Below, one piece after another: positions 8,886-23,576 of a stretch of DNA of 64,000 nt. This stretch comes from Candidatus Woesebacteria bacterium GW2011_GWB1_39_12. Lineage in GTDB: Bacteria > Patescibacteriota > Microgenomatia > UBA8517. The position numbers were made by a program, and so were the translations under genes. Under the pieces are notes generated by a model. It made no database searches and had not been told where the DNA came from. It saw only the letters and a list, made by a program, of their open reading frames with translations. The stretch is taken from the NCBI GenBank assembly GCA_000993405.1, contig LBWB01000012.1:37777-101776 (forward strand). The letters are read 5' to 3'. Every line of letters starts with the position of its first letter. Within the stretch, counting starts at the first letter, position 1.

Positions 8886-11627
8886 ATGAGCAAAGAGGAA
8901 ACCAAACAAAAAATCCAAGAGTTGGTCGATAAATATGAGAAAGCAAAACTTTCTCGTTCAATTTCTAAATATACAGAGGAAGAAACAAAAAAAGACTTTA
9001 TACTTCCATTATTTCAAGCTTTAGGCTGGAATATTTTTGATAAAAACGAGGTTAGTGCAGAAGAATCACAGTCGGGAGGACGAGTTGATTTTGGTTTTTA
9101 TTTTAAGGGCAGACTCAAATTTTATCTTGAGGCAAAATCTTTACGAACTGATCTTAATAGGGAAGAATTTGCTAATCAAGCCATCAAATATTCTTGGAAT
9201 AAGGGCGCAACCTGGGCAATTTTGACAGATTTCGAGGGCTTGAAAGTTTTCAACGCTCAAATTATCGATAGAAAACTTACGGACAAGCTTTATTTTGAAA
9301 TACTTTCAAACCAATATGTTGAAAGGTTTGATCAGCTTTGGTTACTCTCCAAAGGTGCTTTCGAAGAAAATTTAATTGATAAAGAAGCTGAAAAAGTCGG
9401 TAAAAAAATTCAAAGAGTTTCGGTAGGAATATCACTATATAAAGATTTAACCTTGTGCAGAGATATCTTAACCGACAAGCTTGGAAAAATGAATCCTGGG
9501 ATAGATAGTGAATTGTTAGACGAGGGTGTTCAGAAATTACTGGATAGACTTATATTTATAAGAGTTGCAGAAGATCGGGGAATAGAGCCACCAACATTAA
9601 TTCCTCTTATTCGTGCGTGGAAAAATAGCAAAAACCCAAACGAAATTCCTCTTTATAAGTCGATGGTTTCAAAGTTTAGAGAGCTAGATGAAACTTACAA
9701 TTCGAACCTTTTCACTAAACACCCATTGGAAGATTGGGAAGATTGGAGCAATATAACTGAACAAGTTGTAAAAATTCTCCAAGGAAAGCCGGGCTATTAC
9801 GAATATGACTTCAAAGCTATTCCCTCGGATGTTTTAGGAAGCGTTTATGAAAATTATCTAGGCTATAGACTTTCAAAATCCAAAAAAGGACTCACTCTCA
9901 GTAAAGACGCTAAAAAGAGAAAAGAACACGGAATCTACTATACTCCAGATTATATTGTTGACTATATTGTTAAAAATGCACTTAAACCGGTTCTGGACAA
10001 ATGTAATTCAGTAGCAGAGTTAAAGAAGATTAAGGTTTTAGATCCCGCTTGTGGTTCAGGCTCCTTTTTAATTAAAGCGATGGATTTAATTTACAAAAAA
10101 TATGAAGAATTTGGCAATCGAGGAGGGACATATACTAAATTAGCCATCCTGTTAGACAATATTTATGGTGTTGACCTTGATCCACAGGCAGTTGAAATAG
10201 CCAGGTTAAATCTTTTACTTAATATTCTTGAAGAAAAAATAAAACTTCCTTTACTTGATAAAAACATTAAAAACGGCAATTCTCTTATTTCAGGAACAGA
10301 TGAAGAGCTTAAAAGATATTTTGGAGAAAACTTCAGAGATAAAAAACCATTCAATTGGCAAGAAGAATTTCCGGAAGTATTCAAACAAGGTGGTTTTGAC
10401 GTAATTATAGGAAATCCGCCATATATAAGTTTTTATTCGAGGGAATCCCACTTAGACCAATATATACAAGATGTACAGTTTCTTACAGACAAATATGAGT
10501 TAACTCAAATATATTCTGACAGAAGACTAAATACCGTTATGTTTTTTATTGAAAGGTCTCTGCAGATACTGAGAGCTCATGGGAACTTGGGTTTTGTGAT
10601 AGATGCAAACTTTTTGGAAAAACCTTTCAGGGCACTTAGGTCATGGTTAGTGGAAAAGAAGTTCGTAGTTAAAATTTCACAAAAGTTTTCTGCTTTTAAC
10701 GAAGTGGCTAGCGATCAAAATCTTCTGTTTGTTAAAAAATCTAAGTCAGAGCTTCCTTTTGAAGTATTAAGTTTTGATGGAAATGTCGGAAACTTTACGA
10801 ACTCCAAAATCAAAGTTCTTTCTGAAAAGTTCAAAGAGGATGTGGTGAATCTAAATCCAAAGAAAATTAATCTTTATAAAGTTGGTATATTACCACTTAA
10901 GGAATTGGCGCTGGTTTCGACGGGTGTACAGATCGGAATAGGTGGAACAAGGGCATATGACGGACAAAACATTGAAAAATTGTTTTATTCTGAATCTAAA
11001 AAATCGGAGAAACATTTTGAAAATATATCGCTGAATCCAAAAGATTTCTTTCAATATTGTCCACCCAAAACAAAGAATTACCTGAATTTGGATGAAAAAT
11101 TAGCGTCTAAAATAAATAGAAACGTAAAAAAATGTAACATTGCAGTTACGAAAGCAAAACCATTTATAAACAAGGAAAAAATTTTTGTCAGACAATCTTC
11201 TTCATCGATTGTTGCAACTGTAGGTCAGCCAAGGCAAATTTCAGAGTATTCTGCCTTTATGATAAGACCTTTCCAGAAGCACGATACTCATTTCATTCTG
11301 GCAATTCTAAATTCTAAACCAATGACCTTATATGCTAAAGAGGAAAATGTAATTTTAATGGGTAATAAAAAACAACCACAAATCAGGCTAAAGGGTCTGA
11401 AAAAACTACCTTTTCCAGTTGTTGGTGTTAACCCAAAGAGGTCTTTGGCTAGTAAAGCACGGGTTATGTTACATCTCAACAATAAGTTGTTAAAAGTACA
11501 AGAAAACTCAGAAAAATGGAATTATATAAAATCAGAAATCGAGAAAACTGATAATAAAATTGATGAAGAAGTTTACAAACTCTACAACCTCACGGCTAAA
11601 GAAATTGAAATTGTGGAGAAAAGTTGA
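8886..11627 (+). CDS. MmeI-family Type IIL/IIG restriction-modification enzyme (fused PD-ExK nuclease, gamma-class N6-adenine methyltransferase and target-recognition domain)
   Basis: 913 aa. The N-terminal MmeI-like nuclease domain has VDFGFY...YLEAKS (D...EXK). It carries SAM motif I (VLDPACGSGSFL) and motif IV (IIGNPPYI), plus a long C-terminal TRD-like region. Confidence 0.7.
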   Translation: MSKEETKQKIQELVDKYEKAKLSRSISKYTEEETKKDFILPLFQALGWNIFDKNEVSAEESQSGGRVDFGFYFKGRLKFYLEAKSLRTDLNREEFANQAIKYSWNKGATWAILTDFEGLKVFNAQIIDRKLTDKLYFEILSNQYVERFDQLWLLSKGAFEENLIDKEAEKVGKKIQRVSVGISLYKDLTLCRDILTDKLGKMNPGIDSELLDEGVQKLLDRLIFIRVAEDRGIEPPTLIPLIRAWKNSKNPNEIPLYKSMVSKFRELDETYNSNLFTKHPLEDWEDWSNITEQVVKILQGKPGYYEYDFKAIPSDVLGSVYENYLGYRLSKSKKGLTLSKDAKKRKEHGIYYTPDYIVDYIVKNALKPVLDKCNSVAELKKIKVLDPACGSGSFLIKAMDLIYKKYEEFGNRGGTYTKLAILLDNIYGVDLDPQAVEIARLNLLLNILEEKIKLPLLDKNIKNGNSLISGTDEELKRYFGENFRDKKPFNWQEEFPEVFKQGGFDVIIGNPPYISFYSRESHLDQYIQDVQFLTDKYELTQIYSDRRLNTVMFFIERSLQILRAHGNLGFVIDANFLEKPFRALRSWLVEKKFVVKISQKFSAFNEVASDQNLLFVKKSKSELPFEVLSFDGNVGNFTNSKIKVLSEKFKEDVVNLNPKKINLYKVGILPLKELALVSTGVQIGIGGTRAYDGQNIEKLFYSESKKSEKHFENISLNPKDFFQYCPPKTKNYLNLDEKLASKINRNVKKCNIAVTKAKPFINKEKIFVRQSSSSIVATVGQPRQISEYSAFMIRPFQKHDTHFILAILNSKPMTLYAKEENVILMGNKKQPQIRLKGLKKLPFPVVGVNPKRSLASKARVMLHLNNKLLKVQENSEKWNYIKSEIEKTDNKIDEEVYKLYNLTAKEIEIVEKS

Positions 11628-11648
11628 CTTCATTTATTTAGCTTCATA

Positions 11649-11677
11649 TTGACAAATTCCATAGCTGGGTATATAAC
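11649..11677 (+). promoter_or_regulatory. sigma70-like promoter TTGACA-17nt-TATAAC, 10 nt upstream of the ATG at 11688
   Basis: Consensus -35, a 17-nt spacer and a near-consensus -10. The very short leader implies a near-leaderless mRNA. Confidence 0.5.
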
Positions 11678-11687
11678 TTTGTTTAAT

Positions 11688-12194
11688 ATGATAAAGGATT
11701 TAAACTCGTTACTTTCGCTACAGGAGGTTTCTGAACTATTAGGAGTCCACCCTGAAACTTTAAGACGTTGGGACAGAGAGGACAAGTTATCAGCAATTAA
11801 AGTCAACGAGAGAGGAGATAGGAGATATCGATATGGAGATGTTATGAGAATTCTAGGAAGTTACGGAACAATAGAATACAAGGGATTTAAAATAACTCAC
11901 TACAGTCCAGGTTTTGAAATGTTTCCAGATAGGTTTGGTTCCATAGCTAAATTTGTAGTAAGTAATAATTTGGTAGTTGCAGGTTTTGCTTTTGCAGTTG
12001 CGGGTCTGAAACTTTTTGCAGAGCCAGATGTTAAATCGCAAGATCTAGAAAATCTAGCATTGTCAAAAATCAAGTATTTTATAAACCAAAAGCTAATAAA
12101 GAATTTAAAGGAATATACTTTCGAGTTTGAATCTAGGGAACAAGGATTTATACAAATTAAAAATCCAGACTGGTGGACTAAAGGAAGTTTATGA
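11688..12194 (+). CDS. HTH (excisionase/MerR-like HTH_17) DNA-binding protein with a C-terminal hydrophobic segment
   Basis: LSLQEVSELLGVHPETLRRWDRE helix-turn-helix. The ATG at 11688 is preferred over the TTG at 11649 used by the ORF track. Its stop overlaps the next gene's start (ATGA). Confidence 0.55.
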   Translation: MIKDLNSLLSLQEVSELLGVHPETLRRWDREDKLSAIKVNERGDRRYRYGDVMRILGSYGTIEYKGFKITHYSPGFEMFPDRFGSIAKFVVSNNLVVAGFAFAVAGLKLFAEPDVKSQDLENLALSKIKYFINQKLIKNLKEYTFEFESREQGFIQIKNPDWWTKGSL

Positions 12195-13114
12195 GCGAGA
12201 AGATATATGTTAGTAAAATTACGCAAGACACAAAGAACAGCGTTAAAGATTGTCTTTTGAGTTTATTTTACCGAAAGAACGATTTGATTCAATTTTTAAA
12301 AAGTTGCGGTTCCACATCTTCTGATTTGATTAATATAGGAGAATTAATGACAAAGTCCCGAATTGTTGACACTTATTTTGGCAACCTCGAACAGAGGTTA
12401 GACAATGGAACAGCTCAGTATCATAGTTTGATGAGACAAATTATTGATTGGGACGATTTTGACTCTTATTGGTTTCGGAATGGCAGTCTAGATGCAGGTT
12501 ATGCAAAAAGTAGGATTGGGCAATTGAACAAGCTTTTAGGTAAGAAAACAAAAATAGAAGAGGAGAGACTGAAATTACGCGAGAAAGAACAAGAATACGA
12601 AAAAATAAAAGCTAGGTCTCAGCTAATAACTGATTTAAGAGATAAATTTTATCGAATGTGTCAGGATAGCGATCAGACGCAAAAACGAGGTTACGAGTTA
12701 GAAGATTTACTAAATAAAATGTTTAGTTTTTTCGGCTTTGACGTTTTCAAACCATTTAAACTAAAAGGGGAGCAAATAGATGGTTCCTTTAAACACGATG
12801 GAGATAACTATATATTTGAGTCGAAATGGCAGGATAAAGAAAGTGCAGTCAATGATCTTTATGCTTTTGCTTACAAAATAGAGAGCAATTCTTTGTATCC
12901 TAGGGGTGTGTTTTTTTCTATAAATGGATACTCTGAAGATGCATTAAATAGAATAACTTACAACAAAAAGGCTCAACTAATTTTATTTGATGCCGTCGAT
13001 ATAATCGCCGTTCTCGAGGAACGTATATCATTAGTTAGTCTTCTGGAAGAAAAAATTAGATTTGCACAAACACATTCAAGAATCTATGTTAATGCAAATG
13101 ATATTCTTAAATGA
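12191..13114 (+). CDS. Mrr-like restriction endonuclease-fold (PD-(D/E)xK) protein with an N-terminal domain of unknown function
   Basis: The C-terminal region FGFDVF...GEQIDGSF...IFESKWQDK...SINGYSEDA matches the Mrr_cat D...(D/E)xK pattern. It is translationally coupled to the HTH gene. Confidence 0.55.
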   Translation: MSEKIYVSKITQDTKNSVKDCLLSLFYRKNDLIQFLKSCGSTSSDLINIGELMTKSRIVDTYFGNLEQRLDNGTAQYHSLMRQIIDWDDFDSYWFRNGSLDAGYAKSRIGQLNKLLGKKTKIEEERLKLREKEQEYEKIKARSQLITDLRDKFYRMCQDSDQTQKRGYELEDLLNKMFSFFGFDVFKPFKLKGEQIDGSFKHDGDNYIFESKWQDKESAVNDLYAFAYKIESNSLYPRGVFFSINGYSEDALNRITYNKKAQLILFDAVDIIAVLEERISLVSLLEEKIRFAQTHSRIYVNANDILK

Positions 13115-13230
13115 AAACTAATTGGATGATAAAAATTGAGAAATTTATAAATTAATGACATCTCCCGGGCGGGATGAATTGACGCCTCGGGATTTTTCTT
13201 TCCTCCTTCATCAAGACTTCGAAGGACAAG

Positions 13231-13244
13231 CAAATTTGACCCCA
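13231..13244 (+). repeat. cassette-boundary motif copy a (CAAATTTGACCCCA, short form)
   Basis: First member of an 18-copy motif family. It lies 117 nt after the Mrr-like gene stop. Confidence 0.8.
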
Positions 13245-13322
13245 CTCTTTTGGTGTCTCGTATTTAGTATTTAGGAATAATTTGCGTTGACAGTGAGTCT
13301 TTCATATAGTTTAATAGGGATT

Positions 13323-13610
13323 ATGGACGACGTTAAGAAAATGTTTAGAGTAATTGTTAACGGGCAGAGTGTAATAAAGCAAGAGTTGCTTTCGGAAATT
13401 AAGAAAGTAGACAAGAGCTTGAGCGGCAGAATTGATAGTTTAACTACAGAAATGAAAGACGGGTTTAAGAAAGTAAACAAACGTTTAGATTTAATAGGGA
13501 AATCAGTCGCCTTTCTTGAGGATGATACACCGACTAGAGAAGAACATGATAAATTAGAAAAACGCGTTTCTAAAGTAGAAAGAAAACTTCAAATTCAAGC
13601 ACCTGTTTAA
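13323..13610 (+). CDS. small coiled-coil protein, paralog copy 1 (96 aa from MDDVKKMF)
   Basis: ~90% identical to the ORF at 20532..20819, and the upstream 90 nt are also conserved. Confidence 0.55.
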   Translation: MDDVKKMFRVIVNGQSVIKQELLSEIKKVDKSLSGRIDSLTTEMKDGFKKVNKRLDLIGKSVAFLEDDTPTREEHDKLEKRVSKVERKLQIQAPV

Positions 13611-13616
13611 ATATTT

Positions 13617-13634
13617 TCTCCAAACTTGACCCCA
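13617..13634 (+). repeat. motif copy b (TCTCCAAACTTGACCCCA, short form)
   Basis: Starts 7 nt after the preceding stop codon. Confidence 0.8.
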
Positions 13635-13665
13635 TCTTTTTCTATTTTAAAATATATAATTAGTT

Positions 13666-14088
13666 ATGGTTAAGATTAGGAATTATAAAATTAGTGATTA
13701 CACGAAAGTCAAAGAAATTTTAGAAGAAGCCAGTCTTTTTGATGGAGTTTGGGATTCGGAAGAAAATTTATCAGGTAAGATTAAAGCCAATCCTGAATCA
13801 ATACTTGTTGCGGTAAAAGATGGTGTAATTGTTGGAAATGTATGTATCATTAATTACGGGTCAAAACTTCAATATCTTTTCCGTTTGGCTGTAGATAAAG
13901 ATTATCGTAATCAGGGAATAGCAACACAGTTAATTAATTCTGCAGTTGATATTGCAAGAAAAAATGGGGTAAATGAAGTGGGTTTATATGCTGATGCAGA
14001 CAATTCTAAATTGTTAGCCTATTACAGCAAAAGAGGCTTTAAAAAATCTAAGAGCAGATATTATTATATGTGGCAGGATATTAAATAA
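13666..14088 (+). CDS. GNAT family N-acetyltransferase
   Basis: Acetyl-CoA-binding motif RNQGIATQLI (R/Q-x-x-G-x-A/G) and a ~140-aa GNAT fold length. Confidence 0.75.
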   Translation: MVKIRNYKISDYTKVKEILEEASLFDGVWDSEENLSGKIKANPESILVAVKDGVIVGNVCIINYGSKLQYLFRLAVDKDYRNQGIATQLINSAVDIARKNGVNEVGLYADADNSKLLAYYSKRGFKKSKSRYYYMWQDIK

Positions 14089-14092
14089 GAAT

Positions 14093-14160
14093 CTCCAAAT
14101 CCTTCGATAAATTATAACAGTGAGTGTAGTCGAACTGCTCAGGACTATAGTTTGACCCCA
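14093..14160 (+). repeat. motif copy c, long form (CTCCAAAT-CCTTCGATAAATTATAACAGTGAGTGTAGTCGAACTGCTCAGGACTATAG-TTTGACCCCA)
   Basis: 68 nt, starting 5 nt after the GNAT stop. The palindrome halves are separated by a ~48-nt insert. Confidence 0.8.
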
Positions 14161-14236
14161 CGGTTATTTTTTTGTATCAAACTGCGGTTTCTTGACTTTG
14201 TTACTTTTGAACCTCAATATTAGATTAAGGTTAAAT

Positions 14237-14509
14237 ATGATAATAGATGATCCTAACTTTGATATTCCACTTTGGTTTTTTTATCTAATAGCTTTTATAA
14301 AAATAGCATATCTACTTTTTATAGTTTGGGTTATTTTTAACTTATTTTTGATGATTTATTGGTTAATTAGGTCGATAAAAGATAAAAGTGTTATAAAGAT
14401 AGTCAAGAAAAGGGTTAAGTATGTTTTTTTTGGAATGGCTGCTCTTTTAATTCTCTCTTTGGTAGCTTACGTTTTAGGGTTAGTCCCCAATATTAGAGAT
14501 ATTGTGTAG
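14237..14509 (+). CDS. small membrane protein (2-3 TM helices), hypothetical
   Basis: Hydrophobic 90-105-aa ORF. The start is ambiguous (ATG 14192 or 14237). Confidence 0.4.
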   Translation: MIIDDPNFDIPLWFFYLIAFIKIAYLLFIVWVIFNLFLMIYWLIRSIKDKSVIKIVKKRVKYVFFGMAALLILSLVAYVLGLVPNIRDIV

Positions 14510-14576
14510 TTCGTAGCACTTGTATATTAAAGAAAATTAAACAACATAGGGTTGGACTGAAATGTCTCAGGAAAGG

Positions 14577-14590
14577 CAAATTTGACCCCA
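14577..14590 (+). repeat. motif copy d (CAAATTTGACCCCA)
   Basis: Short form. It begins a ~300-bp segment that is duplicated at 18126..18440. Confidence 0.8.
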
Positions 14591-14673
14591 CAATTTTTTA
14601 GAGCGTTTTTTTCTACAGACTCCGCAACCCCTGTTTTGTTGACAAGCCCTGAAATAAGTTTTAAAGTTTTACC

Positions 14674-14871
14674 ATGAACGACGAAAGGGTAAGAGAGCAC
14701 CGCATCCCTCAAAACACAATTGTTGATAGGGGAGGGTATATCGGCCCAGGAGGCAGAATCAACGCCGAGCTTGTGCGGCCACCTGTTGCAGCATCGCCCA
14801 CAACAGAGATTCCACCCGCAGTTTCCCCGCAATCAACTGGAACCGAAAACCCACCACCTACAACGTATTAG
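14674..14871 (+). CDS. small Pro-rich protein, paralog copy 1 (65 aa, MNDERVREHRIP...)
   Basis: Paralog at 18221..18445 differs by an in-frame 27-nt indel and a few substitutions. The frame is conserved on the + strand, and TTGACA...TTAAAG lies upstream. Confidence 0.5.
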   Translation: MNDERVREHRIPQNTIVDRGGYIGPGGRINAELVRPPVAASPTTEIPPAVSPQSTGTENPPPTTY

Positions 14872-14883
14872 TAGTAATATTTT

Positions 14884-14951
14884 CTTCAAATCCTTCGGCA
14901 TGTTATAACAGTGAGCGTTGTCGAACTGCTCAGGACTATAGTTTGACCCCA
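14884..14951 (+). repeat. motif copy e, long form (CTTCAAAT-CCTTCGGCATGTTATAACAGTGAGCGTTGTCGAACTGCTCAGGACTATAG-TTTGACCCCA)
   Basis: 68 nt, starting 13 nt after the stop of the previous ORF. Confidence 0.8.
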
Positions 14952-14974
14952 AATTATTGATAAGAAAGTAGTGC

Positions 14975-15418
14975 ATGTTCTATACTGGTAGTGTGAAGTA
15001 TTTTAAAAACTTCTTTTTATTTTTTTTGCTAACTTTTTTAATTGCTCCGTTTCCGGAATGTATAGATGGATCCTATAGGGGGGTTAATAAATTTAAATGT
15101 TATACCGGTTTATCATTTTTACCTCCTCTAATAAATATAACTTCGATTATGAGCTTTTCATTTCTTTTTTGGTATAAATCTGATCGGGTCGTTTATAACT
15201 ATTGGCTTTGGCAAAATTTCCAGTCTTTTGTCACTTTTATTATTCTTCCCGTTTTAATGTCAGTTTTTTATACAAAATTTGTTGAAAAGTTTGATGCTAA
15301 AAAGAGAGTAATGTATATGATTTTTATTTTGATATTATTCCTGACGGTAAATACTTTAGTCTTTTATTTATTGAAGTACTATAAAATATTGCCGGCTTCG
15401 CTTTTAATTGCCGATTAG
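14975..15418 (+). CDS. hypothetical membrane protein (4 TM)
   Basis: 147 aa and hydrophobic, with no recognisable motifs. Confidence 0.45.
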   Translation: MFYTGSVKYFKNFFLFFLLTFLIAPFPECIDGSYRGVNKFKCYTGLSFLPPLINITSIMSFSFLFWYKSDRVVYNYWLWQNFQSFVTFIILPVLMSVFYTKFVEKFDAKKRVMYMIFILILFLTVNTLVFYLLKYYKILPASLLIAD

Positions 15419-15488
15419 TTTTAAGATAATTATTAATTAATAAATTGCGCCTTAGAAGTGAAATAAGTTTACACCTTGATATATCCTT

Positions 15489-15625
15489 CCAATTTGACCC
15501 CATAATCCATTCGGCTTCGCTCAGGACTATAGTCCATTCGACAAGTTATAACAGTGAGCGTTGTCGAACTGCTCAGGACATAGTCCTTCGGTTTTACTCA
15601 GAATCATAATTCTTCGATTTTTGTT
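15489..15625 (+). repeat. motif copy f, composite (short core CCAATTTGACCCCA plus ATAATCCATTCGGCTTCGCTCAGGAC, plus the GTTATAACAGTGAGCGTTGTCGAACTGCTCAGGAC insert segment at 15545..15579, plus a tail shared with 18471..18551)
   Basis: Sub-repeats are shared with copies g, h and j. Confidence 0.75.
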
Positions 15626-15644
15626 TGGGTTTGAGATATAATTA

Positions 15645-16328
15645 TTGCAAATGTATAAACTATCTCCTTCCGACTTTAAGTATTTGTATGAGGACTGTAA
15701 GCATTGCTATTACCAAAAAGTTCGGGGGGTAATTAAAGAGCTCCCCTCGATTGGTATGCCGGGGGTATTTACGAAGATGAATACTCTTTTGCAAAACACA
15801 ATTATCGGCATGGATTTACGGGAAATTAATTCCAAACTTCCCGCAGGTAAAATCGAGGTTAAAGAAGGTTTTTTGAAATCCAAAACAATTCCTCCAACCA
15901 ACGATTGCTTTATAGGAGGAAGATTTGATATTGCCTCACGCCTTGACGACGGAACTTATTCAGTCATAGATTTTAAAATTACTGATCCTACAGAAGACAA
16001 AATCCAAAAGTTCTTTCCGCAATTGCATGCTTACAAATTTGCCCTGGAAAATCCGGCGTTTGGTGAGGCGAAAAAGGTGAGCAAAATGGGAGTTATCGCA
16101 ATTAATCCTGAAGAGATATCTTTTCCTGGCGAGAAAGTAGTCTTTACGGCAAAGCCCCTATTGTTTGAGATCGAGGAAGACATGGATAGGTTTTTTGCAT
16201 TTATTTCTGAAGTATCTAAATTGGTGAATGGACCTGAACCGCCGGAAAACTCTGACAATTGCAAATGGTGTTATTATCGACTTTGTACGACAAAGGTTAA
16301 AGATAACCAAGAAGACATTCCTTTTTAA
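15645..16328 (+). CDS. Cas4-like / RecB-family PD-(D/E)xK nuclease with an Fe-S Cys cluster (standalone, no CRISPR locus)
   Basis: N-terminal SPSDFKYLYEDCKHCYY (Cas4-like YxxC motif), core GGRFDI...SVIDFKI (D...DxK), and C-terminal CKWCYYRLC (CxxCx4C). Confidence 0.6.
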   Translation: MQMYKLSPSDFKYLYEDCKHCYYQKVRGVIKELPSIGMPGVFTKMNTLLQNTIIGMDLREINSKLPAGKIEVKEGFLKSKTIPPTNDCFIGGRFDIASRLDDGTYSVIDFKITDPTEDKIQKFFPQLHAYKFALENPAFGEAKKVSKMGVIAINPEEISFPGEKVVFTAKPLLFEIEEDMDRFFAFISEVSKLVNGPEPPENSDNCKWCYYRLCTTKVKDNQEDIPF

Positions 16329-16337
16329 TAACTCTTT

Positions 16338-16393
16338 AAATTTGATCTCATAATCCATTCGGCTTCGCTCAGGACTTCGCAAATTTGACTACA
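16338..16393 (+). repeat. motif copy g, degenerate (TAAATTTGATCTCATAATCCATTCGGCTTCGCTCAGGAC ... GCAAATTTGACTACA)
   Basis: Starts 10 nt after the Cas4-like stop and shares a 27-nt block with copy f. Confidence 0.7.
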
Positions 16394-16423
16394 GAGTTAT
16401 TCGAAATTATACTAGCCCATATT

Positions 16424-17356
16424 ATGAGTGAGAGAGGAAAAGATAAAAAAATTGTAAATGCCAGAAGTACAATCGCGCATCTTGGAAGAAAAGAGCATCT
16501 TACATCCAAAGAAGAAGATAGATTAGATAAAGCTAAAAAAATTACAAGACGACAATTTTTTAAACGGGCCGGAGTTTTAACCGGTGGTGCAGCTCTAACC
16601 GTAATTGGCGGTGGTGCAGCTTATAAAATTGTAGAAAATTTGACAAAGAGTGAAAGTGATGAAGAGGTTGTTACCGGATATGAGAAGGCATTAAATTCTG
16701 TTGTCGAAGGCGATTCAGAGGGAGAAAAATTACTTGATTTTTACAGAGACAGGAAGCGGGACGCCCATATAGAGGGCGATGTTATTTATGCTGATGAAGA
16801 AGGGGACTTAGATAGTAACTTCTGGGTGGTGGTGGATAGAGGTGGAGAATTTAAATCAAATAGAGTTACGGGAATTTCAGAATATAGCCAAGATAATAAT
16901 TTATTGAGAGTTAGATCCTTTGAATCAACTGATGACTTCAAGGGAACCTTGCTCGCACATGAACTGAAACACGCTTATGACGATATTATGCAGATAGAAG
17001 GTCCGGATGAGAATTCATTTTACCGTTCTGAAGCAGAGGCATATGATTTTGAATTTCGATTATTAGATAATGTTTCGGGGAAGCGTTTTATAGGTGTACT
17101 TCAGGAACAGTCACGGTCTATTGAACCGGGAAAGTTTAGGGGTAGATTGTCAGATGAAAATTTTATTTCCTTGAATGATTTATTTCTTGACGCTGTAAGC
17201 AAAGAAGAATTAAATCATAGAGTAGTAGTGTATACAATCGCACTAAATTTTGCCGCCATCGGATTAAGATCTGATATCGCCGATGTTGCACAACAAAAAG
17301 CGGAATATATTCGTGCGATTTATTCTCAAGATATCCCAATATTACCCCTTGATTAA
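16424..17356 (+). CDS. Tat-signal secreted HExxH metallopeptidase-like protein
   Basis: Twin-arginine motif TRRQFFKRAG followed by a hydrophobic h-region, and HELKH (HExxH). The ATG at 16424 is preferred over the TTG at 16385. Confidence 0.5.
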   Translation: MSERGKDKKIVNARSTIAHLGRKEHLTSKEEDRLDKAKKITRRQFFKRAGVLTGGAALTVIGGGAAYKIVENLTKSESDEEVVTGYEKALNSVVEGDSEGEKLLDFYRDRKRDAHIEGDVIYADEEGDLDSNFWVVVDRGGEFKSNRVTGISEYSQDNNLLRVRSFESTDDFKGTLLAHELKHAYDDIMQIEGPDENSFYRSEAEAYDFEFRLLDNVSGKRFIGVLQEQSRSIEPGKFRGRLSDENFISLNDLFLDAVSKEELNHRVVVYTIALNFAAIGLRSDIADVAQQKAEYIRAIYSQDIPILPLD

Positions 17357-17448
17357 CAATTTAATGCCATTTTGAAAGGAACTTGACTTAATGTGGCATT
17401 CTTATGTCACCTTCAAAGTATGATACAAGTAAGTAAATCAGGATTTTT

Positions 17449-17506
17449 CTCCAAATTCGACACTTAGACGTGACTAAGTGCAAGCCCATAATCCATTCGA
17501 CAAGCT
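17449..17506 (+). repeat. motif copy h, degenerate (CTCCAAATTCGACA ... CCCATAATCCATTCGACAAGCT)
   Basis: Lies in the convergent gap between the metallopeptidase gene and the minus-strand HD gene. Confidence 0.6.
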
Positions 17507-17517
17507 CCGAAATATTT

Positions 17518-18075
17518 TTAAATTTTCTTTGCTCTTTTCAAATCTCTTTTCTCAAGTTCCTTAAATATCTTGCTGCCGTTTTTGGATTTAAAAACAGGTT
17601 TATAATTTTCAAAAAAAGTATCCAAAACTTTTGTATCTTGTGTTTCTTCTTCAAATACTTCTCCCTGAAGTAAGGTTTCAAGCTTATCGGCTTCCCTCGC
17701 AATTTGGGATTCTTTAGTCTTCATAGAATTAAATTCATTGAATAAATTCATATATTCTTTTTTAATTACGGAAGGTAGTTCGTTGAAAACAGTCCTTTTT
17801 GCTTTCTCTTCCATTAATCGCTTCTTGTCATAATTACCGGAGGGGGGAATAACGTCATCCATTTTTGCCATCACCCAATCGTGAACTAATAATATCTTGA
17901 CTACTTTCTCTGAATTTACCTTCTCAAGTTTTGCCAAGTAGAGACCAATGCACATTGCCCCAAAAATGTGAGAGGCCAGATCATCCGAATCCATTCCTTT
18001 GTAAATCCAACCCTGGCGCTTGGTCTTCTTTAAAACTGAAATGATTGAGTACAAGTCCTTTATAGTTTTCATCAT
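17518..18075 (-). CDS. HD-domain phosphohydrolase (YfbR-like 5'-deoxynucleotidase family)
   Basis: H...HD...D pattern: SHIFGAMCIG, LLVHDWVMAKMDD, READKLETLLQ. Confidence 0.6.
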   Translation of the reverse strand: MMKTIKDLYSIISVLKKTKRQGWIYKGMDSDDLASHIFGAMCIGLYLAKLEKVNSEKVVKILLVHDWVMAKMDDVIPPSGNYDKKRLMEEKAKRTVFNELPSVIKKEYMNLFNEFNSMKTKESQIAREADKLETLLQGEVFEEETQDTKVLDTFFENYKPVFKSKNGSKIFKELEKRDLKRAKKI

Positions 18076-18120
18076 ACAATTTTAGCACTTGTAGATTCAT
18101 TTTTCGATAAACTCCAGTTT

Positions 18121-18139
18121 CTTCAAATTTGACCCTGCA
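18121..18139 (+). repeat. motif copy i (CTTCAAATTTGACCCTGCA)
   Basis: Start of the duplicated segment (copy 2). Confidence 0.8.
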
Positions 18140-18220
18140 ATTTTTTAGAGCGTTTTTTTCTACAAACTCCGCAACCCCTGTTTTGTTGACAAGCCCTGAA
18201 ATAAGTTTTAAAGTTTTACA

Positions 18221-18445
18221 ATGAACGACGAAAGGGTAGGAGAGCACCGCATTCCTAAAAACACAATTGTTGATAGGGGAGGGTATATCGGCGCAGGAGG
18301 CAGAATCAACGCCGAGCTTGTGCGACCACCCGAAGTCGTTCCTCCTATAAATCCGCCTGTCGCAGCATCGCTCACAACAGAGACGCCACCCGCTGTTCCC
18401 CCGCAACTATCTGGAAACGAAAACCCACCACTCACAACGTATTAG
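18221..18445 (+). CDS. small Pro-rich protein, paralog copy 2 (74 aa)
   Basis: See 14674..14871. A 9-aa insertion (EVVPPINPP) preserves the frame. Confidence 0.5.
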   Translation: MNDERVGEHRIPKNTIVDRGGYIGAGGRINAELVRPPEVVPPINPPVAASLTTETPPAVPPQLSGNENPPLTTY

Positions 18446-18457
18446 TAGTAATATTTT

Positions 18458-18551
18458 CTTCAAATCCTTCGGCAAGTTATAACAGTGAGCGTTGTCGAAC
18501 TGCTCAGGACTATAGTCCTTCGGTTTTACTCAGGATCACGATTCTTCGACT
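18458..18551 (+). repeat. motif copy j, long form variant (CTTCAAAT-CCTTCGGCAAGTTATAACAGTGAGCGTTGTCGAACTGCTCAGGACTATAG-TCCTTCGG...), with a tail shared with copy f
   Basis: Starts 13 nt after the stop. It is ~95% identical to 15545..15625 and lacks the terminal TTTGACCCCA. Confidence 0.75.
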
Positions 18552-18583
18552 TTTATTTATTGAAGCAGTATAATCGCCATAGA

Positions 18584-18976
18584 ATGTTGGAATCAAAATC
18601 GTCCATAAATCAGGGACTGGCAGAAATATATAAAGAGGCATGTCAAAACCTTGGTAGGTATTTAGACGGTTTGAATCATGGTGTTGCAAGGTCGTATAAA
18701 GGACGTATGAGGCAAGAAACGGTACGACAAGAGGTTGAAGAGTACGGGCAGGAATCTCTTTACCATACTTTCGAAACACCGTACGTTCAGGGATATGGTT
18801 TGGTTGTCTCGACTTTAAATATTTTAGAAAGGTTAAATGTTCATACAAATACCGATCTTTTAGGATTAGATATAGAGAACGCCGAAAAGCAAAACAGAGA
18901 CTTTGGCGATAAAAAAGTAGAATTGGTTGGCCTTTTCAAAGAAATAGTCAGAGCACAAAAAGACTTAGAAGAGTAG
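18584..18976 (+). CDS. hypothetical protein (130 aa from MLESKSS)
   Basis: ATG at 18584 with TATAAT 9 nt upstream. The ORF-track GTG start at 18485 lies inside the repeat and is rejected. Confidence 0.45.
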   Translation: MLESKSSINQGLAEIYKEACQNLGRYLDGLNHGVARSYKGRMRQETVRQEVEEYGQESLYHTFETPYVQGYGLVVSTLNILERLNVHTNTDLLGLDIENAEKQNRDFGDKKVELVGLFKEIVRAQKDLEE

Positions 18977-18982
18977 TATTAT

Positions 18983-18999
18983 CTCCAAATTTGACCCCA
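18983..18999 (+). repeat. motif copy k (CTCCAAATTTGACCCCA)
   Basis: Starts 7 nt after the stop. Confidence 0.85.
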
Positions 19000-19065
19000 C
19001 ATTATTAGTATTAAATATTGAGTATATCGTAGTTATGGAATGTTGTGGGTGATATACTTTAGCCT

Positions 19066-19632
19066 ATGAAGAGGGCAATAATTGTTCACTGTTGGGAAGG
19101 GTATCCTAAGTATTGTTGGTATCCTCAAACTAAAAAGGAGTTAGAAGAGGAAGGTTTTGAAGTAGAAGTTCCAGAGATGCCTGAAACTGCAAATCCTAAA
19201 CTTTCTGGGTGGCTTTCCAAGCTTAAAGATATAGTTCAAACTCCTGATAAAAATCTCTTTTTAGTCGGGCACAGTTTAGGCTGTATAACCATAATGAGAT
19301 ATTTGGAAAGCTTAAAAGAGGGCAAGAAAGTGGGAGGAGTAGTTTTTGTGGCGGGATTTACGGATGATTTGGGTTATAAGGAACTCACAAACTTTTTCAC
19401 TGAAACGATTGATTTTGAAAAGATTAGAGAAAAATCTGATAGTTTTTATGCAATAAATTCCGATGACGACCCATACGTTTCTCTTAAATACGCTGATATT
19501 TTGAAAGAAAAACTCGGAGCGATATCGATAATAAAGCATAATATGAAGCATTTCTCAGGACCAATAGACAATGAAGACAGCTGTCTTTCTATTCCGGAAG
19601 TTACAAAGTCCATCATAAAGATGGCGAGGTGA
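19066..19632 (+). CDS. RBBP9/YdeN-like alpha/beta serine hydrolase
   Basis: ~190 aa with IIVHCWEG at the N-terminus and the nucleophile elbow GHSLG. Confidence 0.7.
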   Translation: MKRAIIVHCWEGYPKYCWYPQTKKELEEEGFEVEVPEMPETANPKLSGWLSKLKDIVQTPDKNLFLVGHSLGCITIMRYLESLKEGKKVGGVVFVAGFTDDLGYKELTNFFTETIDFEKIREKSDSFYAINSDDDPYVSLKYADILKEKLGAISIIKHNMKHFSGPIDNEDSCLSIPEVTKSIIKMAR

Positions 19633-19634
19633 TT

Positions 19635-19651
19635 CTTCAAATTTGACCCCA
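19635..19651 (+). repeat. motif copy l (CTTCAAATTTGACCCCA)
   Basis: Starts 3 nt after the stop. Confidence 0.85.
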
Positions 19652-19696
19652 TATTGCTTCACCAGAATAAGGCGATTATAGCTCAACTGGATGAGT

Positions 19697-19930
19697 TTAT
19701 ACTATTGGTCGATGGGGTAACCTGGCACGAGTGGCTCTCGATACGGCATTGGGGTTAGTTGCATTACCAACTGCACCTATAACTTCATCTACACTGAAAG
19801 GTTCGGGAGTTAAGGCTTGAATTACATCTAACTTGGCTAGCTCTGCGGAATCTCTCGGGTCTTCCGGTTGAACGTGTTGGTATCTTTGGATTACTTCTCT
19901 TGTAAGAGGAGCTTCAATTCTTAAAGTCAT
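19697..19930 (-). CDS. hypothetical 77-aa protein (minus strand, locally higher GC)
   Basis: The ORF sits in a GC-richer patch. It is the only minus-strand ORF in this gap and has no motifs. Confidence 0.3.
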   Translation of the reverse strand: MTLRIEAPLTREVIQRYQHVQPEDPRDSAELAKLDVIQALTPEPFSVDEVIGAVGNATNPNAVSRATRARLPHRPIV

Positions 19931-19966
19931 TAGTTGTTCGTATTATAAGGATAGAATTAAGATTTT

Positions 19967-19981
19967 GCAAATTTGACCCCC
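19967..19981 (+). repeat. motif copy m (GCAAATTTGACCCCC)
   Basis: Short form. Confidence 0.8.
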
Positions 19982-20036
19982 GACCGTAGAAATTAAACGA
20001 TAGTTTCGTTTGAATATTCTATGTTAAGATTAACTA

Positions 20037-20402
20037 ATGAAACGCAGATTGCCGTATATTATTATTTTTATTTTATTTATAGCAATTTTAATTTTTCTGT
20101 ATTTTTTATTTAGTATGAATTATGTTCCTAAGAATAAGGAACTGAAATTTACGAATTCTCCACTTAATTATTGTTCGTCCAATTTTGATTGTTATATTTA
20201 CAGTTATGATTCATGCCAGTGTCCGACCAGTGTTGTTGTGAATAAGAAATATAAAGATTCCCCTGAGCTGTATAATAATTTTCCTATTACTCCCTCCGAA
20301 GAATGTCTTATTGCTTGTACTCCTGGAAGCTCTTTTCCCAAAAATGCTTATTGTGTTAATGGTAAGTGCGGTATTGAATACGAGAAATTGTTTGAAAAAT
20401 GA
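20037..20402 (+). CDS. small secreted Cys-rich protein (hypothetical)
   Basis: N-terminal signal/TM helix and 10 Cys in the mature part. Confidence 0.5.
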   Translation: MKRRLPYIIIFILFIAILIFLYFLFSMNYVPKNKELKFTNSPLNYCSSNFDCYIYSYDSCQCPTSVVVNKKYKDSPELYNNFPITPSEECLIACTPGSSFPKNAYCVNGKCGIEYEKLFEK

Positions 20403-20444
20403 CTTAAGATTTGTAACAATTGAGATTATTCATCCGTGAAATAT

Positions 20445-20461
20445 CCTTCAAATTTGACCCT
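20445..20461 (+). repeat. motif copy n (CCTTCAAATTTGACCCT)
   Basis: Begins the duplicated coiled-coil cassette (20445..20822, similar to 13231..13613). Confidence 0.8.
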
Positions 20462-20531
20462 ACTTTTGGTATCTAGTATTTAGGAATAATTTGCGTTGAC
20501 GGTGAGTCTTTCATATAGTTTAATAGGGATT

Positions 20532-20819
20532 ATGGACGACGTTAAGAAAATGTTTAGAGTAATTGTTAACGGGCAGAGTGCAATAAAGCAAGAGTTGCTT
20601 TCGGAAATTAAGAAAGTAGACAAGAGCTTGAGCGGCAGAATTGATAGTTTAACTACAGAAATGAAAGAAGGGTTTAAGAAAGTAAACAAACATCTTGATA
20701 TGATTGGAAAGAGTGTTGCTTTTCTTGAAGACGACACACCGACCTGGGAGGAACATGATGAATTAGAAAAGCGGGTTACTAAAGTTGAGAAAAAACTTCA
20801 GATTCAAGCACATATTTAA
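20532..20819 (+). CDS. small coiled-coil protein, paralog copy 2
   Basis: See 13323..13610. Confidence 0.55.
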   Translation: MDDVKKMFRVIVNGQSAIKQELLSEIKKVDKSLSGRIDSLTTEMKEGFKKVNKHLDMIGKSVAFLEDDTPTWEEHDELEKRVTKVEKKLQIQAHI

Positions 20820-20826
20820 ATATGCT

Positions 20827-20869
20827 CTCCAAATCCTTCAGTATTATTCAGGACTGTAGTTTGACCACA
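20827..20869 (+). repeat. motif copy o, intermediate form (CTCCAAAT-CCTTCAGTATTATTCAGGACTGTAG-TTTGACCACA)
   Basis: Starts 8 nt after the stop and has a shortened insert. Confidence 0.7.
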
Positions 20870-20928
20870 AAACCCCCAGCCGTTTCTTTCACGCGCCCTA
20901 TTATGAGAGTTGTTGAAACTATTGGTGA

Positions 20929-21226
20929 AGTTATTTAATCGCGTCTCGAACCGCCTCCTCCTCTGTTGTCGTTTCCGCCCGAAGATCTCTCTTCTCGCGG
21001 TCTTGCTTCGTTAACAACTATTTTTCTTCCGCCAAGCTCCGTACCGTTTAACTCTTTTATTGCTTTATCTGCATTTGCATCGTCTGCAAACTCAACAAAA
21101 GCAAACCCCTTTCCTTGATTCGTAAACTTGTCGGTAATAACGTCAGCCGTAGTAACTTCTCCTATTTTCGAAAAAAGTTCCAGAAGCCCGTGAAACCTAT
21201 ACCTGAAGTATCGATTTAGTGCCTAT
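20929..21226 (-). pseudogene. RRM-type (RNP-1/RNP-2) RNA-binding protein gene, apparently 5'-truncated with no in-frame start
   Basis: The minus-strand translation ...GLLELFSKIGEVTTADVITDKFTNQGKGFAFVEFADDANADKAIKELNGTELGGRKIVVNEARPREERSSGGNDNRGGGGSRRD* contains RNP-1 (KGFAFVEF). The RNP-2 region is garbled, and no ATG/GTG/TTG precedes the in-frame stop. Confidence 0.5.
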
Positions 21227-21360
21227 CAGAATGGATTCGTAACCTTAAGCTGTATTATATCTTAATTGGTTCCATAATTCCTAATAATCGGTTGTAGTAG
21301 AAATTTAACCCCACATAAAATGCTTCATTCTTCCTAAAGTTTTTTTAAGCCGATTTCCAG

Positions 21361-21374
21361 CAAATTTGACATTA
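21361..21374 (+). repeat. motif copy p, degenerate (CAAATTTGACATTA)
   Basis: Short form with the CCCCA tail lost. Confidence 0.6.
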
Positions 21375-21420
21375 GTTGATTTATTTCTATATAATGACTT
21401 TTTATATAAAAGTTTCAGTT

Positions 21421-22164: not shown

Positions 22165-22210
22165 AGAACTTCTACAAATTTCACTCCAAGGAAAAATTAA
22201 TAGTTAATTA

Positions 22211-22477
22211 TCATATACAAGTTGGAACTTTATCTCCCGGCAAAGTTAAGCAGATGAAGTAACAATTAGCCAGACAAGCGCCTCGAGGACACCCCAGTTC
22301 TGCCCCTTTTATACATATGGGATATTTGTTTTTGCAACTCGTTCGACACAAGTTTTTTCTTACTAATAAAATAGTTGTTACTAAAAAAGTTAATAAGGTA
22401 AGGATAAATATTATAATTAAAAAAATTTTATATATCTTCACAACCTTAATATTAGAAGCGATAGAGAATAAATTCAA
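22211..22477 (-). CDS. small Cys-rich membrane protein (hypothetical)
   Basis: 88 aa, with an N-terminal TM helix and 9 Cys. Confidence 0.3.
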   Translation of the reverse strand: MNLFSIASNIKVVKIYKIFLIIIFILTLLTFLVTTILLVRKNLCRTSCKNKYPICIKGAELGCPRGACLANCYFICLTLPGDKVPTCI

Positions 22478-22481
22478 CTTT

Positions 22482-22498
22482 CTTCAAAATTGACCCCG
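22482..22498 (+). repeat. motif copy q (CTTCAAAATTGACCCCG)
   Basis: Short form, upstream of BrnT. Confidence 0.8.
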
Positions 22499-22526
22499 TT
22501 GTTTGATATGGCAAAAGGTATGGTAA

Positions 22527-22826
22527 TATGGTAATATCCTTACAGATACGACTTTTGAGTGGGATGAGGATAAAAATACTAAGAATCTGAAGAAGCATGG
22601 TGTCGACTTTGAAACTGCCCAATACGCTTTTCTAGACGAAAGACGTGTAATTGCAAAAGATTTAGCACATAGTAAAGAAGAAGAACGGTATTATTGTTTC
22701 GGTAAAGTAAAAGGAGGTGTAATAACTGTCCGGTTTACCTATCGAGATAATCGTATCCGGATAATCGGAGCAGATTATTGGAGAAGGGGCAGAAAAATAT
22801 ATGAAAAAGAAAATAAAATATTCTAA
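22527..22826 (+). CDS. brnT: BrnT-like toxin (DUF497 ribonuclease fold); the ORF lacks a canonical in-frame start codon
   Basis: Translation TTFEWDEDKNTKNLKKHGVDFETAQYAFLDERRVIAKDLAHSKEEERYYCFGKVKGGVITVRFTYRDNRIRIIGADYWRR... matches the BrnT family. It overlaps brnA by 26 nt. An 8-bp tandem duplication, TGGTAATATGGTAATA, lies at the 5' end. Confidence 0.55.
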   Translation, partial: YGNILTDTTFEWDEDKNTKNLKKHGVDFETAQYAFLDERRVIAKDLAHSKEEERYYCFGKVKGGVITVRFTYRDNRIRIIGADYWRRGRKIYEKENKIF

Positions 22827-23028
22827 CGAGCCTGTTGAGGCAAAGGTAATCGATGATTTTCTACCCAGCCCGGAAGAGTTGGTTTTAAAAGAAAAGAAAA
22901 CCAAAATAACGCTTACTCTTACAGAAAAAAGTCTCAAATTCTTTAAAGACAGTGCCAAGAAACAGGGAGCATCTTATCAAGCAATGATCAGAAGACTAAT
23001 TGATTATTACGTAGCAAATCAAATTTAA
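22801..23028 (+). CDS. brnA: BrnA-like antitoxin (RHH/CopG-like)
   Basis: DDFLPSPEEL...KITLTLTEKSLKFFKDSAKKQGASYQAMIRRLIDYY matches the BrnA pattern. It is downstream of and overlapping BrnT. Confidence 0.65.
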   Translation: MKKKIKYSNEPVEAKVIDDFLPSPEELVLKEKKTKITLTLTEKSLKFFKDSAKKQGASYQAMIRRLIDYYVANQI

Positions 23029-23055
23029 AACACTTCTATCTGGGCATTTTTCTTT

Positions 23056-23082
23056 CCTTCAAAGTGCACAAATCTGACCCCA
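23056..23082 (+). repeat. motif copy r (CCTTCAAAGTGCACAAATCTGACCCCA)
   Basis: Last copy. It starts ~27 nt after the brnA stop. Confidence 0.7.
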
Positions 23083-23177: not shown

Positions 23178-23576
23178 ATGAAAGGTTTTAAGGGAAATAT
23201 TGAAGAACTTACTTTGAAAAACGGGAATTTTAGAAAGGTTCTCTATACGGCCAAGTTTAGTCAGTTGGTTTTGATGAGTCTAAAACCAAATGAGGAAATT
23301 GGTGAAGAAATTCATGAAGACACAGATCAGTTTTTTCGTGTAGAGACAGGAGAAGGTAAAGTAATTATTGACGGAAATGAGTACGAAGTTGAAGACGGTT
23401 CTGCTGTTGTTGTTCCGGCTGGGGCCAAACATAATGTAATCAATACCTCAAGTACCGAAGACTTAAAGCTTTATACTATTTATTCTCCTGCTCATCACAA
23501 AGACGGGATAGTCCATTCAACAAAAGCTCAAGCTGAGGCGGATTCCGAACACTTTGACGGACAAACCACTGAATAA
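23178..23576 (+). CDS. cupin-domain protein
   Basis: Cupin_2-like GEEIHEDTDQFF...AVVVPAGAKHNVIN (two His-containing motifs). Confidence 0.6.
   Translation: MKGFKGNIEELTLKNGNFRKVLYTAKFSQLVLMSLKPNEEIGEEIHEDTDQFFRVETGEGKVIIDGNEYEVEDGSAVVVPAGAKHNVINTSSTEDLKLYTIYSPAHHKDGIVHSTKAQAEADSEHFDGQTTE

Follow-up and report, generated by a model that had tools for sequence, protein, structure and literature searches.

Integron attC sites vary in sequence and share a conserved imperfect hairpin secondary structure (PMC9024848), and 93% of complete integrons are found in gamma-Proteobacteria (PMC9024848). In Acinetobacter, the dif modules are small accessory modules, including toxin-antitoxin pairs, that are bounded by short sites, with the housekeeping XerC/XerD encoded elsewhere; these pdif sites are 28 bp in length (11-6-11), dif-like, alternating in orientation and mainly plasmid-borne (PMC6449649). 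The genomes of candidate phyla radiation bacteria are tiny, and the routes by which these bacteria acquire and trade accessory genes are poorly understood; our literature search returned no description of integron-like cassette arrays in them. Here we analyzed 64,000 nucleotides of Candidatus Woesebacteria bacterium GW2011_GWB1_39_12 of the candidate phyla radiation (contig LBWB01000012.1; the whole stretch is termed the window, and coordinates refer to it unless a contig is named). Its chromosomal DNA carries an array of about 20 gene cassettes on the + strand (13231-23082), in which two cassettes, termed A and B, each occur twice. Since the ends of every copy fall midway through one and the same 18-base repeat, the array resembles an integron-type cassette system. 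We consider it probable that this is an integron-like array that is no integron, in which an enzyme encoded elsewhere recombines the site centres and thereby copies or moves cassettes. Duplication of a cassette is in itself ordinary for cassette arrays; the array that it reveals appears to be an undescribed variant.

The duplicated cassettes and their boundaries

The array contains about 20 copies of an 18-bp asymmetric site, TTCTYCAAA/TTTGACCCC (the slash marks the site centre), which lies where neighbouring cassettes meet and was delineated by motif search, the repeat families D5-D8 and a sequence logo. Throughout the window, 25 matches with up to three mismatches to CAAATTTGACCCCA were found, versus 9.9 expected; about 20 of the matches have two mismatches or fewer, every one of these is on the + strand within 13231-23082, and none lies elsewhere in the 64 kb. 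The logo of 107 sites, drawn from eight contigs (five sites come from L232, a giant-virus contig that was later set aside), confines the information to 18 positions, TTCTYCA followed by AATTTGACCCC, and the flanks hold none. The site core TCAAATTTGA is a 10-bp palindrome (TCAAA/TTTGA). Each cassette begins with TTTGACCCC, continues with one gene (rarely two or none) and ends with TTCTYCAAA, and the units of the arrays have a median length of 491 bp. The sites are nearer to the stop codon of the upstream + strand open reading frame (ORF) (median 31 nt, measured to AATTTG; one quarter at 12 nt or less) than to the next ATG (median 91 nt), and the distance from site to start codon ranges from ~13 to ~250 nt. 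With its short units in one direction, recombination-type sites and unit boundaries inside the site, the array has an integron-like architecture.

Pair A comprises the cassettes A1 (13235..13624, + strand) and A2 (20453..20833, + strand), each with a 95-residue coiled-coil gene termed CC1 (13323..13610 and 20532..20819, + strand; the A2 protein is UT24_C0012G0063). MAFFT and a repeat finder gave 92% identity over 13260-13559 / 20469-20768 and ~90% for the whole unit (13231-13624 versus 20449-20833), which bears out the ~90% reported in a first-pass annotation of the same DNA. The homology opens exactly at CAAATTTGACCC (13231 / 20449) and closes at TCTCCAAA (13624 / 20833), outside of which the flanks are unrelated. 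The sequence common to the pair runs from CAAA/TTTGACCC on the left to TCTCCAAA on the right, namely from mid-site to mid-next-site, with A1 extending from a TTTGACCCC half-site to a TCTCCAAA half-site and its homology to A2 bounded by the site centres.

The coding signals indicate that CC1 is a real + strand gene, as the first-pass annotation had proposed. Alignment of the two copies yielded a ratio of nonsynonymous to synonymous substitution rates (dN/dS) of 0.16, and third codon positions hold 20 of the 32 differences in the ORF. A word-index search retrieved 80 homologues and a profile search 388 representative clusters, nearly all of them small standalone proteins. The start codon is the ATG at 13323, 7 nt past a promoter-like TTGACA-17-TTTAAT element of leaderless type (13287..13315, + strand; 20496-20524 in A2), which is kept in the homologous cassettes of two contigs from other genomes, L070 and L073. 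The AlphaFold2 model of A1 has two helices (residues 2-68 and 72-92) at a mean predicted local distance difference test (pLDDT) score of 82, and the family signature is present, with MDDVKKMFRxIVNGQS at the N-terminus and LEDDTPTxEE..LEKRV at the C-terminus of a standalone protein of ~90 residues (alignment A3). CC1 has no significant Pfam match, and its matches in PADLOC, PHROGs and the PDB sequences are marginal, of a generic coiled-coil type and uninformative. More distant CC1 homologues occur at the loci L083-L153, where the motif is absent; therefore, the family is broader than the arrays.

Counted from 13260, pair A is a mosaic, with 4 differences in the first 222 nt (98% identity) versus 32 in the next 140 nt (~77%, synonymous divergence dS ~1.2), a pattern that does not fit a simple recent duplicate. 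Correspondingly, the N-terminal parts of the two proteins are 96% identical and the C-terminal parts 81%. A single-nucleotide polymorphism (13372 T/C and 20581 C/T) segregates in both CC1 copies across samples, which fits ongoing gene conversion between them. The mosaic identity pattern, together with this polymorphism, points to gene conversion in pair A. The two cassettes may go back to a duplication of long ago, as old paralogues, or may have entered the array separately from a common pool of cassettes, and in either case the 5' parts may have been recently homogenized by gene conversion.

Pair B comprises the cassettes B1 (14581..14941, + strand) and B2 (18128..18515, + strand), which are 96% identical over 14577-14783 / 18124-18330 and 91% identical over 14779-14942 / 18353-18516. 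The homology opens at the bounding motif (14577 / 18124), spans a 59-nt long-form 3' junction (14883-14941 in B1 and 18457-18515 in B2) and closes at GGACTATAG (14941 / 18515). The first-pass annotation had recognized this repeat and its single 27-nt indel, which is in frame with the ORF, but had ended the unit too early, the homology being ~60 nt longer. Its estimates of ~90 and ~100 nt for the two leaders agree with the 92 nt (A) and 97 nt (B) measured here.

The Pro-rich ORF of pair B has 65 residues in B1 (14674..14871, + strand) and, with the 27-nt in-frame insertion, 74 residues in B2 (18221..18445, + strand; found in the same context in at least 24 contigs), and its coding status is uncertain. 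The dN/dS of 0.63 is based on just 17 differences, and a frame on the minus strand reaches a similar score. The changes, which had been described as mostly conservative, include R>G, Q>K and P>A. A search of 5.8 billion clusters gave no homologue beyond this species. Its coding nature is favoured by a frame that stays open in B1 and B2, by an indel that keeps the reading frame and by a TTGACA-17-TAAAGT element that ends 6 nt short of the ATG (14639-14667, + strand, in B1). The ORF is probably a gene, though unproven, so that the proposal of two real + strand genes stands for CC1 and is weak for the Pro-rich ORF. A structured RNA in cassette B gained no support (z = -0.25 and +0.52), and Rfam gave no match in 12500-24000.

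All four homology boundaries of the two pairs fall inside the bounding motif TTCTYCAAATTTGACCCC, so the duplicated units are indeed whole motif-bounded units, each of them a circular permutation of the site. Unit ends in the middle of a site are a prediction of site-specific exchange, and copying of a gene plus its promoter would not give them. Within the window, the pairs give the most direct evidence that rearrangement proceeds by whole motif-bounded units, and they would place the crossover at AAA/TTT. The four cassettes are arranged in the order A1..B1..B2..A2, all in direct orientation, which excludes one segmental duplication; therefore, at least two separate cassette-scale events took place.

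Both copies of both pairs are present in many assemblies. The 95-residue protein of A1 recurs on more than 20 public contigs, as does the 74-residue protein of B2; these contigs stem from varied samples and assemblers (ENA and JGI; MEGAHIT k141, SPAdes-type scaffolds and JGI assemblies), and the long ones, which carry all four cassettes, are colinear with window positions 12001-21191 at 99.7-100% identity. The copies within the pairs differ at 23-36 positions and have different flanks, and repeats of such length and identity are not attainable by chance. Collapse, expansion or chimerism in the assembly, a concern raised in the first-pass annotation, could be suspected from local defects of the window in the RRM gene and ileS and from a 1-kb A2/A1 hybrid contig. 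We rejected this extremely improbable explanation because both copies recur colinear in many independent assemblies of different samples.

Compared with the other assemblies, the window lacks ~100 nt at 21182-21191, by which the start of the RRM gene (minus strand, ~20940-21250) is lost, and 25 nt near 25530, which splits ileS into 23646-25601 and 25547-26611. Both deletions are probably local assembly errors in the source record, and they leave the two pairs untouched. An extra 95-residue gene in the contigs L004 and L006 turned out to be an alternative start call for the 121-residue ORF, with no cassette swap.

As to the origin of the copies, homologous cassettes might have been captured independently from a shared pool rather than made in this array, with pair A later partly homogenized, an explanation that we regard as rather doubtful. 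It draws on CC1 outnumbering every other cassette family, with 11 members in all and one to two or more in each array examined, on the dS of the 3' part of pair A, and on the closest relatives of that part. The C-terminal part of A2 is closer to P0021 (88% of residues) than to A1 (81%), and that of A1 is, again at 88%, closer to proteins from other contigs, namely P0007 and P0048, than to A2. However, the identical leader and promoter of A1 and A2 need local exchange anyway, and pair B is most simply explained by an in-situ duplication because it has no relatives elsewhere. Independent capture concerns the origin of the copies and not the mechanism, and is compatible with recombination at the site centre.

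Junction forms and comparison with described systems

Most junctions of the array consist of the 18 bp with the 10-bp palindrome, which cannot form an attC-type hairpin. In the short form between A1 and the GNAT acetyltransferase cassette (13621..13634, + strand), the TTGACC doubles as a -35-like element of the GNAT gene. A long form (14092..14160, + strand; repeat family D3; fold z = 0.2 to 1.0) is made up of the left half-site TCTCCAAA, the module TCCTTCG...CTCAGGACTATAG and the right half-site TTTGACCCC; a medium form closes the 3' end of A2 (20825..20868, + strand), and a site with three tandem small modules (TCCATTCG...CTCAGGAC) lies in the leader of a Cas4-like cassette (15489..15620, + strand). 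The module TCC(A)TTCG...CTCAGGAC(TATAG) is located between CAAA and TTTG in the junctions 14092-14160, 14883-14951 and 20825-20868, and between TCC and AAATTTG at 13233 and 16381 of the window and at 7564 and 9510 of the contig L015. Two left halves (TCTYCAAA and CTCAGGACTATAG) and two right halves (TTTGACCCC and TCCWTTCG) occur in all four combinations. The left half-site variant, TCTCC for A1 and A2 and TCTTC for B1 and B2, stays with the upstream cassette and the right half-site with the downstream one, and the apparent junction always falls inside the central AAATTT. This suggests a site layout of arm, overlap and arm, namely TTCTYC / AAATTT / GACCCC.

The small modules, 26-52 nt in length, are found in junctions and leaders of the window (15503-15620, 18516-18558, 14100-14141 and 16351-16379) and of other arrays (7520-7563 and 9480-9509 in L015; ~10350-10390 in L094). 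In the leader of the Cas4-like or GmrSD cassette, their copy number is zero in L015, one in L094 and three in the window, with ATAA on the flanks. They contain no strong hairpins, and could be miniature mobile elements or recombination scars. An integron has an attI site with a Pc promoter that drives mostly promoterless cassettes; here, the first site of the array (13231) comes after a terminator-like hairpin and a conserved TCCTTC...GAAGGAC module, with no recognizable attI or Pc.

The overall organization resembles that of sedentary chromosomal integrons and CALINs (attC clusters without an integrase): about 20 short, mostly single-gene units run in one direction on the chromosome, a repeated site, homogeneous in the lineage, directly follows the 3' end of the ORFs and contains the unit boundary, the cargo includes an acetyltransferase (GNAT), toxin-antitoxin genes and many small unknown ORFs, and there are paralogous cassettes and a content that differs among related species. 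A classical integron or CALIN with unusual attC sites would share these features, yet we judge it highly unlikely. The attC sites are hairpin-defined (PMC9024848), structured elements of 57-141 nt with boxes in the order R''-L''...L'-R', whereas the array sites are an 18-bp conserved sequence without that layout. The long forms of 55-78 nt and a 108-nt junction fold no better than shuffled sequences on either strand (-2.8 to -9.0 kcal/mol, a range that leaves out the 142-nt triple-module region; z from -1.1 to +1.0), on which grounds classical attC sites were rejected. Moreover, no intI integrase gene (the adjacent tyrosine recombinase of complete integrons) lies in the 64-kb window, the array cassettes are usually self-promoted in a leaderless-type manner, and the host is a candidate phyla radiation bacterium. 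An array of this kind would escape integron-finding software, because the software seeks attC hairpins and intI.

With the Acinetobacter dif modules the array has in common the short sites and, as we infer here, a recombinase that is not linked to it. However, its sites are conserved over 18 nt instead of 28 bp, all lie in one direct orientation instead of alternating, and are chromosomal; their sequence is, we assume, unlike that of dif. The sfx sites of shufflons, on which Rci acts, are likewise short and asymmetric (~19 bp, with one arm well conserved and the other less); they are inverted and produce inversions within one gene, whereas the array sites are direct and bound whole genes. Phage-type promoters, such as the 23-bp T7 promoter, also form a conserved motif of ~20 bp in one orientation between the genes of a limited region. 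Unlike these promoters, the array motif flanks minus-strand genes and empty units, stands at variable distances from the start codon and is cut in the middle by the duplicates.

Probable exchange at the site centre and its alternatives

The location of the boundaries at site centres points to exchange at the sites. The same direction is indicated by about 20 sites on one strand within 10 kb, by the recurrence of the same 18-nt site in at least six other contigs, by a cargo typical of cassette arrays, and by sites that flank minus-strand genes and ORF-less units and lie nearer to the upstream stop than to the downstream ATG. In the mechanism that we propose, a site-specific recombinase encoded elsewhere in the genome would exchange strands within the central AAATTT. 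In the simplest model, that of integron cassette shuffling, recombination of one direct site with another would free a cassette circle that carries one rebuilt site, and this circle would enter another site on a sister chromosome in which the original cassette is retained. The copies would diverge after re-insertion, and the 5' 220 nt of pair A would later be homogenized by gene conversion between the direct repeats.

Several findings weigh against this proposal. No recombinase domain was detected by Pfam scans in the 67 ORFs (most of at least 100 residues) of the window, nor among the called genes and large ORFs that surround the arrays of L015, L070, L073, L077 and L094, or in the two scanned ORFs of L074, the array flanks available for the scan being limited in all these other contigs. 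With 18 bp and non-symmetric arms, the site is short by the standards of known recombinases. Cassette presence and order did not vary among more than 24 contigs of this species or among those of two others, and junction variants are limited to two contigs: L258, a hybrid of the homologous-recombination type, and L257, a low-coverage contig and possible chimera. In L015 (10469-11991) and L077 (4872-5819), the essential GTPase gene obg (minus strand) lies between two direct sites. Finally, the right half-site holds a consensus -35 (TTGAC), used as such by some cassettes, so that a regulatory role could explain part of its conservation. Recombination between the obg-flanking sites of L015 or L077 would delete obg.

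The array is stable across all sampled populations. Where the first-pass annotation spoke of a mobile cassette array, the cassette architecture stands, as the motif bounds differing arrays in other species; mobility is what we infer, and the lack of a recombinase in the 64 kb, the sites that are not attC-like and the lack of a presence/absence variant among the contigs of this species weigh against taking it as shown.

The TTGAC of the right half-site gives rise to the main alternative explanation, in which the 18-mer is a regulatory element ahead of each small gene, either a UP-like AAATTT with a -35 TTGAC or an operator for an array-encoded helix-turn-helix (HTH) protein, and in which the duplicates arose by short-homology or RecA-type recombination, for instance after natural transformation, with no dedicated recombinase. 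We consider it unlikely. A good -10 follows at 16-18 nt in four cassettes of the window (13626, 16385, 18991 and 21366), and a -10-like hexamer comes after 21% of the sites versus 10% of random positions (~2-4 times commoner); however, some 80% of the sites have no -10 at the right distance, and many cassettes hold their own promoter 40-60 nt further downstream. The repeat in L073 spans both a -35 and a -10, but the sites flank minus-strand genes and ORF-less units as well, in a constant orientation whatever the strand of the gene, and the conserved CCCC and TTCTYC positions are not needed by a -35 element. The failure to find a recombinase and the crossover of L258 in a homologous ORF rather than at a site both agree with the regulatory explanation. 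Against it, the duplicated units begin and end mid-site and not at site edges, and 18 bp is below the usual length for efficient homologous recombination.

The two variant contigs differ in kind. In L258 (ERZ4903070 k141_1536275, 1037 nt), the end of the 121-residue gene and the A2 leader with the 5' part of the ORF are continued by A1 sequence, from the 3' part of its ORF into the GNAT gene, and the switch point lies inside the shared ORF, not at a site. From its sequence it could be a homologous recombination product of the direct copies (a circle or tandem duplication) or an assembly chimera. In L257 (ERZ4902915 NODE_10332), the match to the window stops at 4300-4320, exactly at TCTCCAAAC, the site centre after A1, and is followed by unrelated DNA of 47.6% G+C that encodes a Pro/Thr-rich secreted protein. 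With a coverage of 2.5x and no right half-site, this contig was taken as a possible chimera and not as evidence.

Arrays in other genomes, flanks and cargo

At least six more contigs of Woesebacteria-like type have arrays bounded by this site, with a largely different gene content: L015 (matching L076, L048 and L058, GCA_001792545.1), L070-L072, L073, L074, L077 and L094. Array contigs of the same species are identical. The site has variant forms in L073 (TAATTTGACCCTATAAT) and L077 (AATTTGACTCC). The families common to arrays of different species are limited to CC1, a second small coiled-coil family (six members, with two copies each in L070 and L094), the Cas4-like nuclease, HicAB, the serine hydrolase, BrnA and the cupin. 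The cassette order is not colinear between species, for example A-B-C in L070 versus A-C-B in L094. Duplicates inside the arrays of L073, L015 and L070 likewise start or end within a few nucleotides of the sites.

An ORF-less unit of ~126 nt occurs in five to six copies in L015, most of them with sites on both sides (9509-9627, 10288-10407, 12030-12142, 13567-13690 and 14454-14580). Because the 3' part of this unit is similar to the final codons of the adjacent HTH_24 gene, it may be a decayed cassette.

Four of the arrays start directly downstream of restriction-modification or defence clusters of differing types: Type IIG in the window (8886-13114), Type IIG with ThsB-TIR in L070 (1331-6262), MwoI-like in L015 (4846-7166) and CfrBI-like in L094 (1123-3443). 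GmrSD genes lie inside the L073 and L094 arrays. Going beyond exchange at the site centre, we suggest tentatively, as a possibility that falls short of probable, an undescribed Woesebacteria cassette system, analogous and not homologous to integrons, with self-promoted single-gene cassettes, an 18-bp double-stranded site (TTCTYC-AAATTT-GACCCC) and an unlinked recombinase, possibly a housekeeping Xer-type pair; its arrays beside restriction-modification systems would serve these very small genomes as a store of defence and accessory genes. If true, modular gene capture would have been solved a second time, and independently, by cassette arrays whose short site is defined by its sequence.

An exact 18-mer scan of 185,579 species-representative genomes found true arrays in two contigs only, the rest being single matches at about the number expected by chance. 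The sole viral contig with multiple matches, L232 (IMG/VR GVMAG-M-3300017963-13), is a giant virus with a different, longer repeat and was set aside. That repeat, at a spacing of ~550-750 nt, holds the same 15-mer (TCAAAAATTCCAAATTTGACCCCCCC), with no other sequence common to the arrays.

In the window, the left flank of the array is an operon of a Type IIG restriction-modification enzyme, a MerR/HTH_17 protein and a 307-residue protein (8886..13114, + strand), separated from the array start by 117 nt, and the right flank consists of a cupin gene (23178..23576, + strand) followed by ileS. The surroundings are housekeeping genes, with ftsA and ftsZ upstream and ftsW, rplU, rpmA and parB downstream. 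The cargo includes the two CC1 copies, the two Pro-rich ORFs, the GNAT acetyltransferase, two small membrane ORFs, a Cas4-like PD-(D/E)XK nuclease, a secreted 310-residue protein, an HD hydrolase, a serine hydrolase, a matrixin-like protease and BrnT/BrnA. Three units carry minus-strand genes, namely the HD hydrolase (17518-18075), a 77-residue ORF (19697-19930) and the RRM gene, and have + oriented sites on either side.

The Cas4-like nuclease cassette (15651..16328, + strand) was assigned by Pfam PF12705, PADLOC (Cas4) and family clustering. The protein has Cys motifs at both ends and is the only enzyme kept as a single copy in five of the seven arrays. With homologues in L015, L070, L073 and L077, it could conceivably be either cargo or part of the array machinery.

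The toxin-antitoxin cassette (22541..23028, + strand) contains a BrnT frame (22541-22831; PF04365, E = 1.7e-24) and a BrnA/CopG-like ORF (22801-23028) with weak matches. A start codon of the ATG, GTG or TTG type is lacking in the BrnT frame, which was missed by every gene caller.

Many cassettes have a sigma-70-like promoter (TTGACA, 17 nt, TTTAAT or TAAAGT) 6-8 nt ahead of the ATG, with no Shine-Dalgarno sequence. Such elements are located at 13287-13325, 14639-14676, 18186-18223 and 20496-20534 in the window and at 6573-6610, 8835-8873 and 9911-9950 in L070. Promoters this close to the start codon, together with the lack of a Shine-Dalgarno sequence, suggest that these cassettes are transcribed into leaderless mRNAs.

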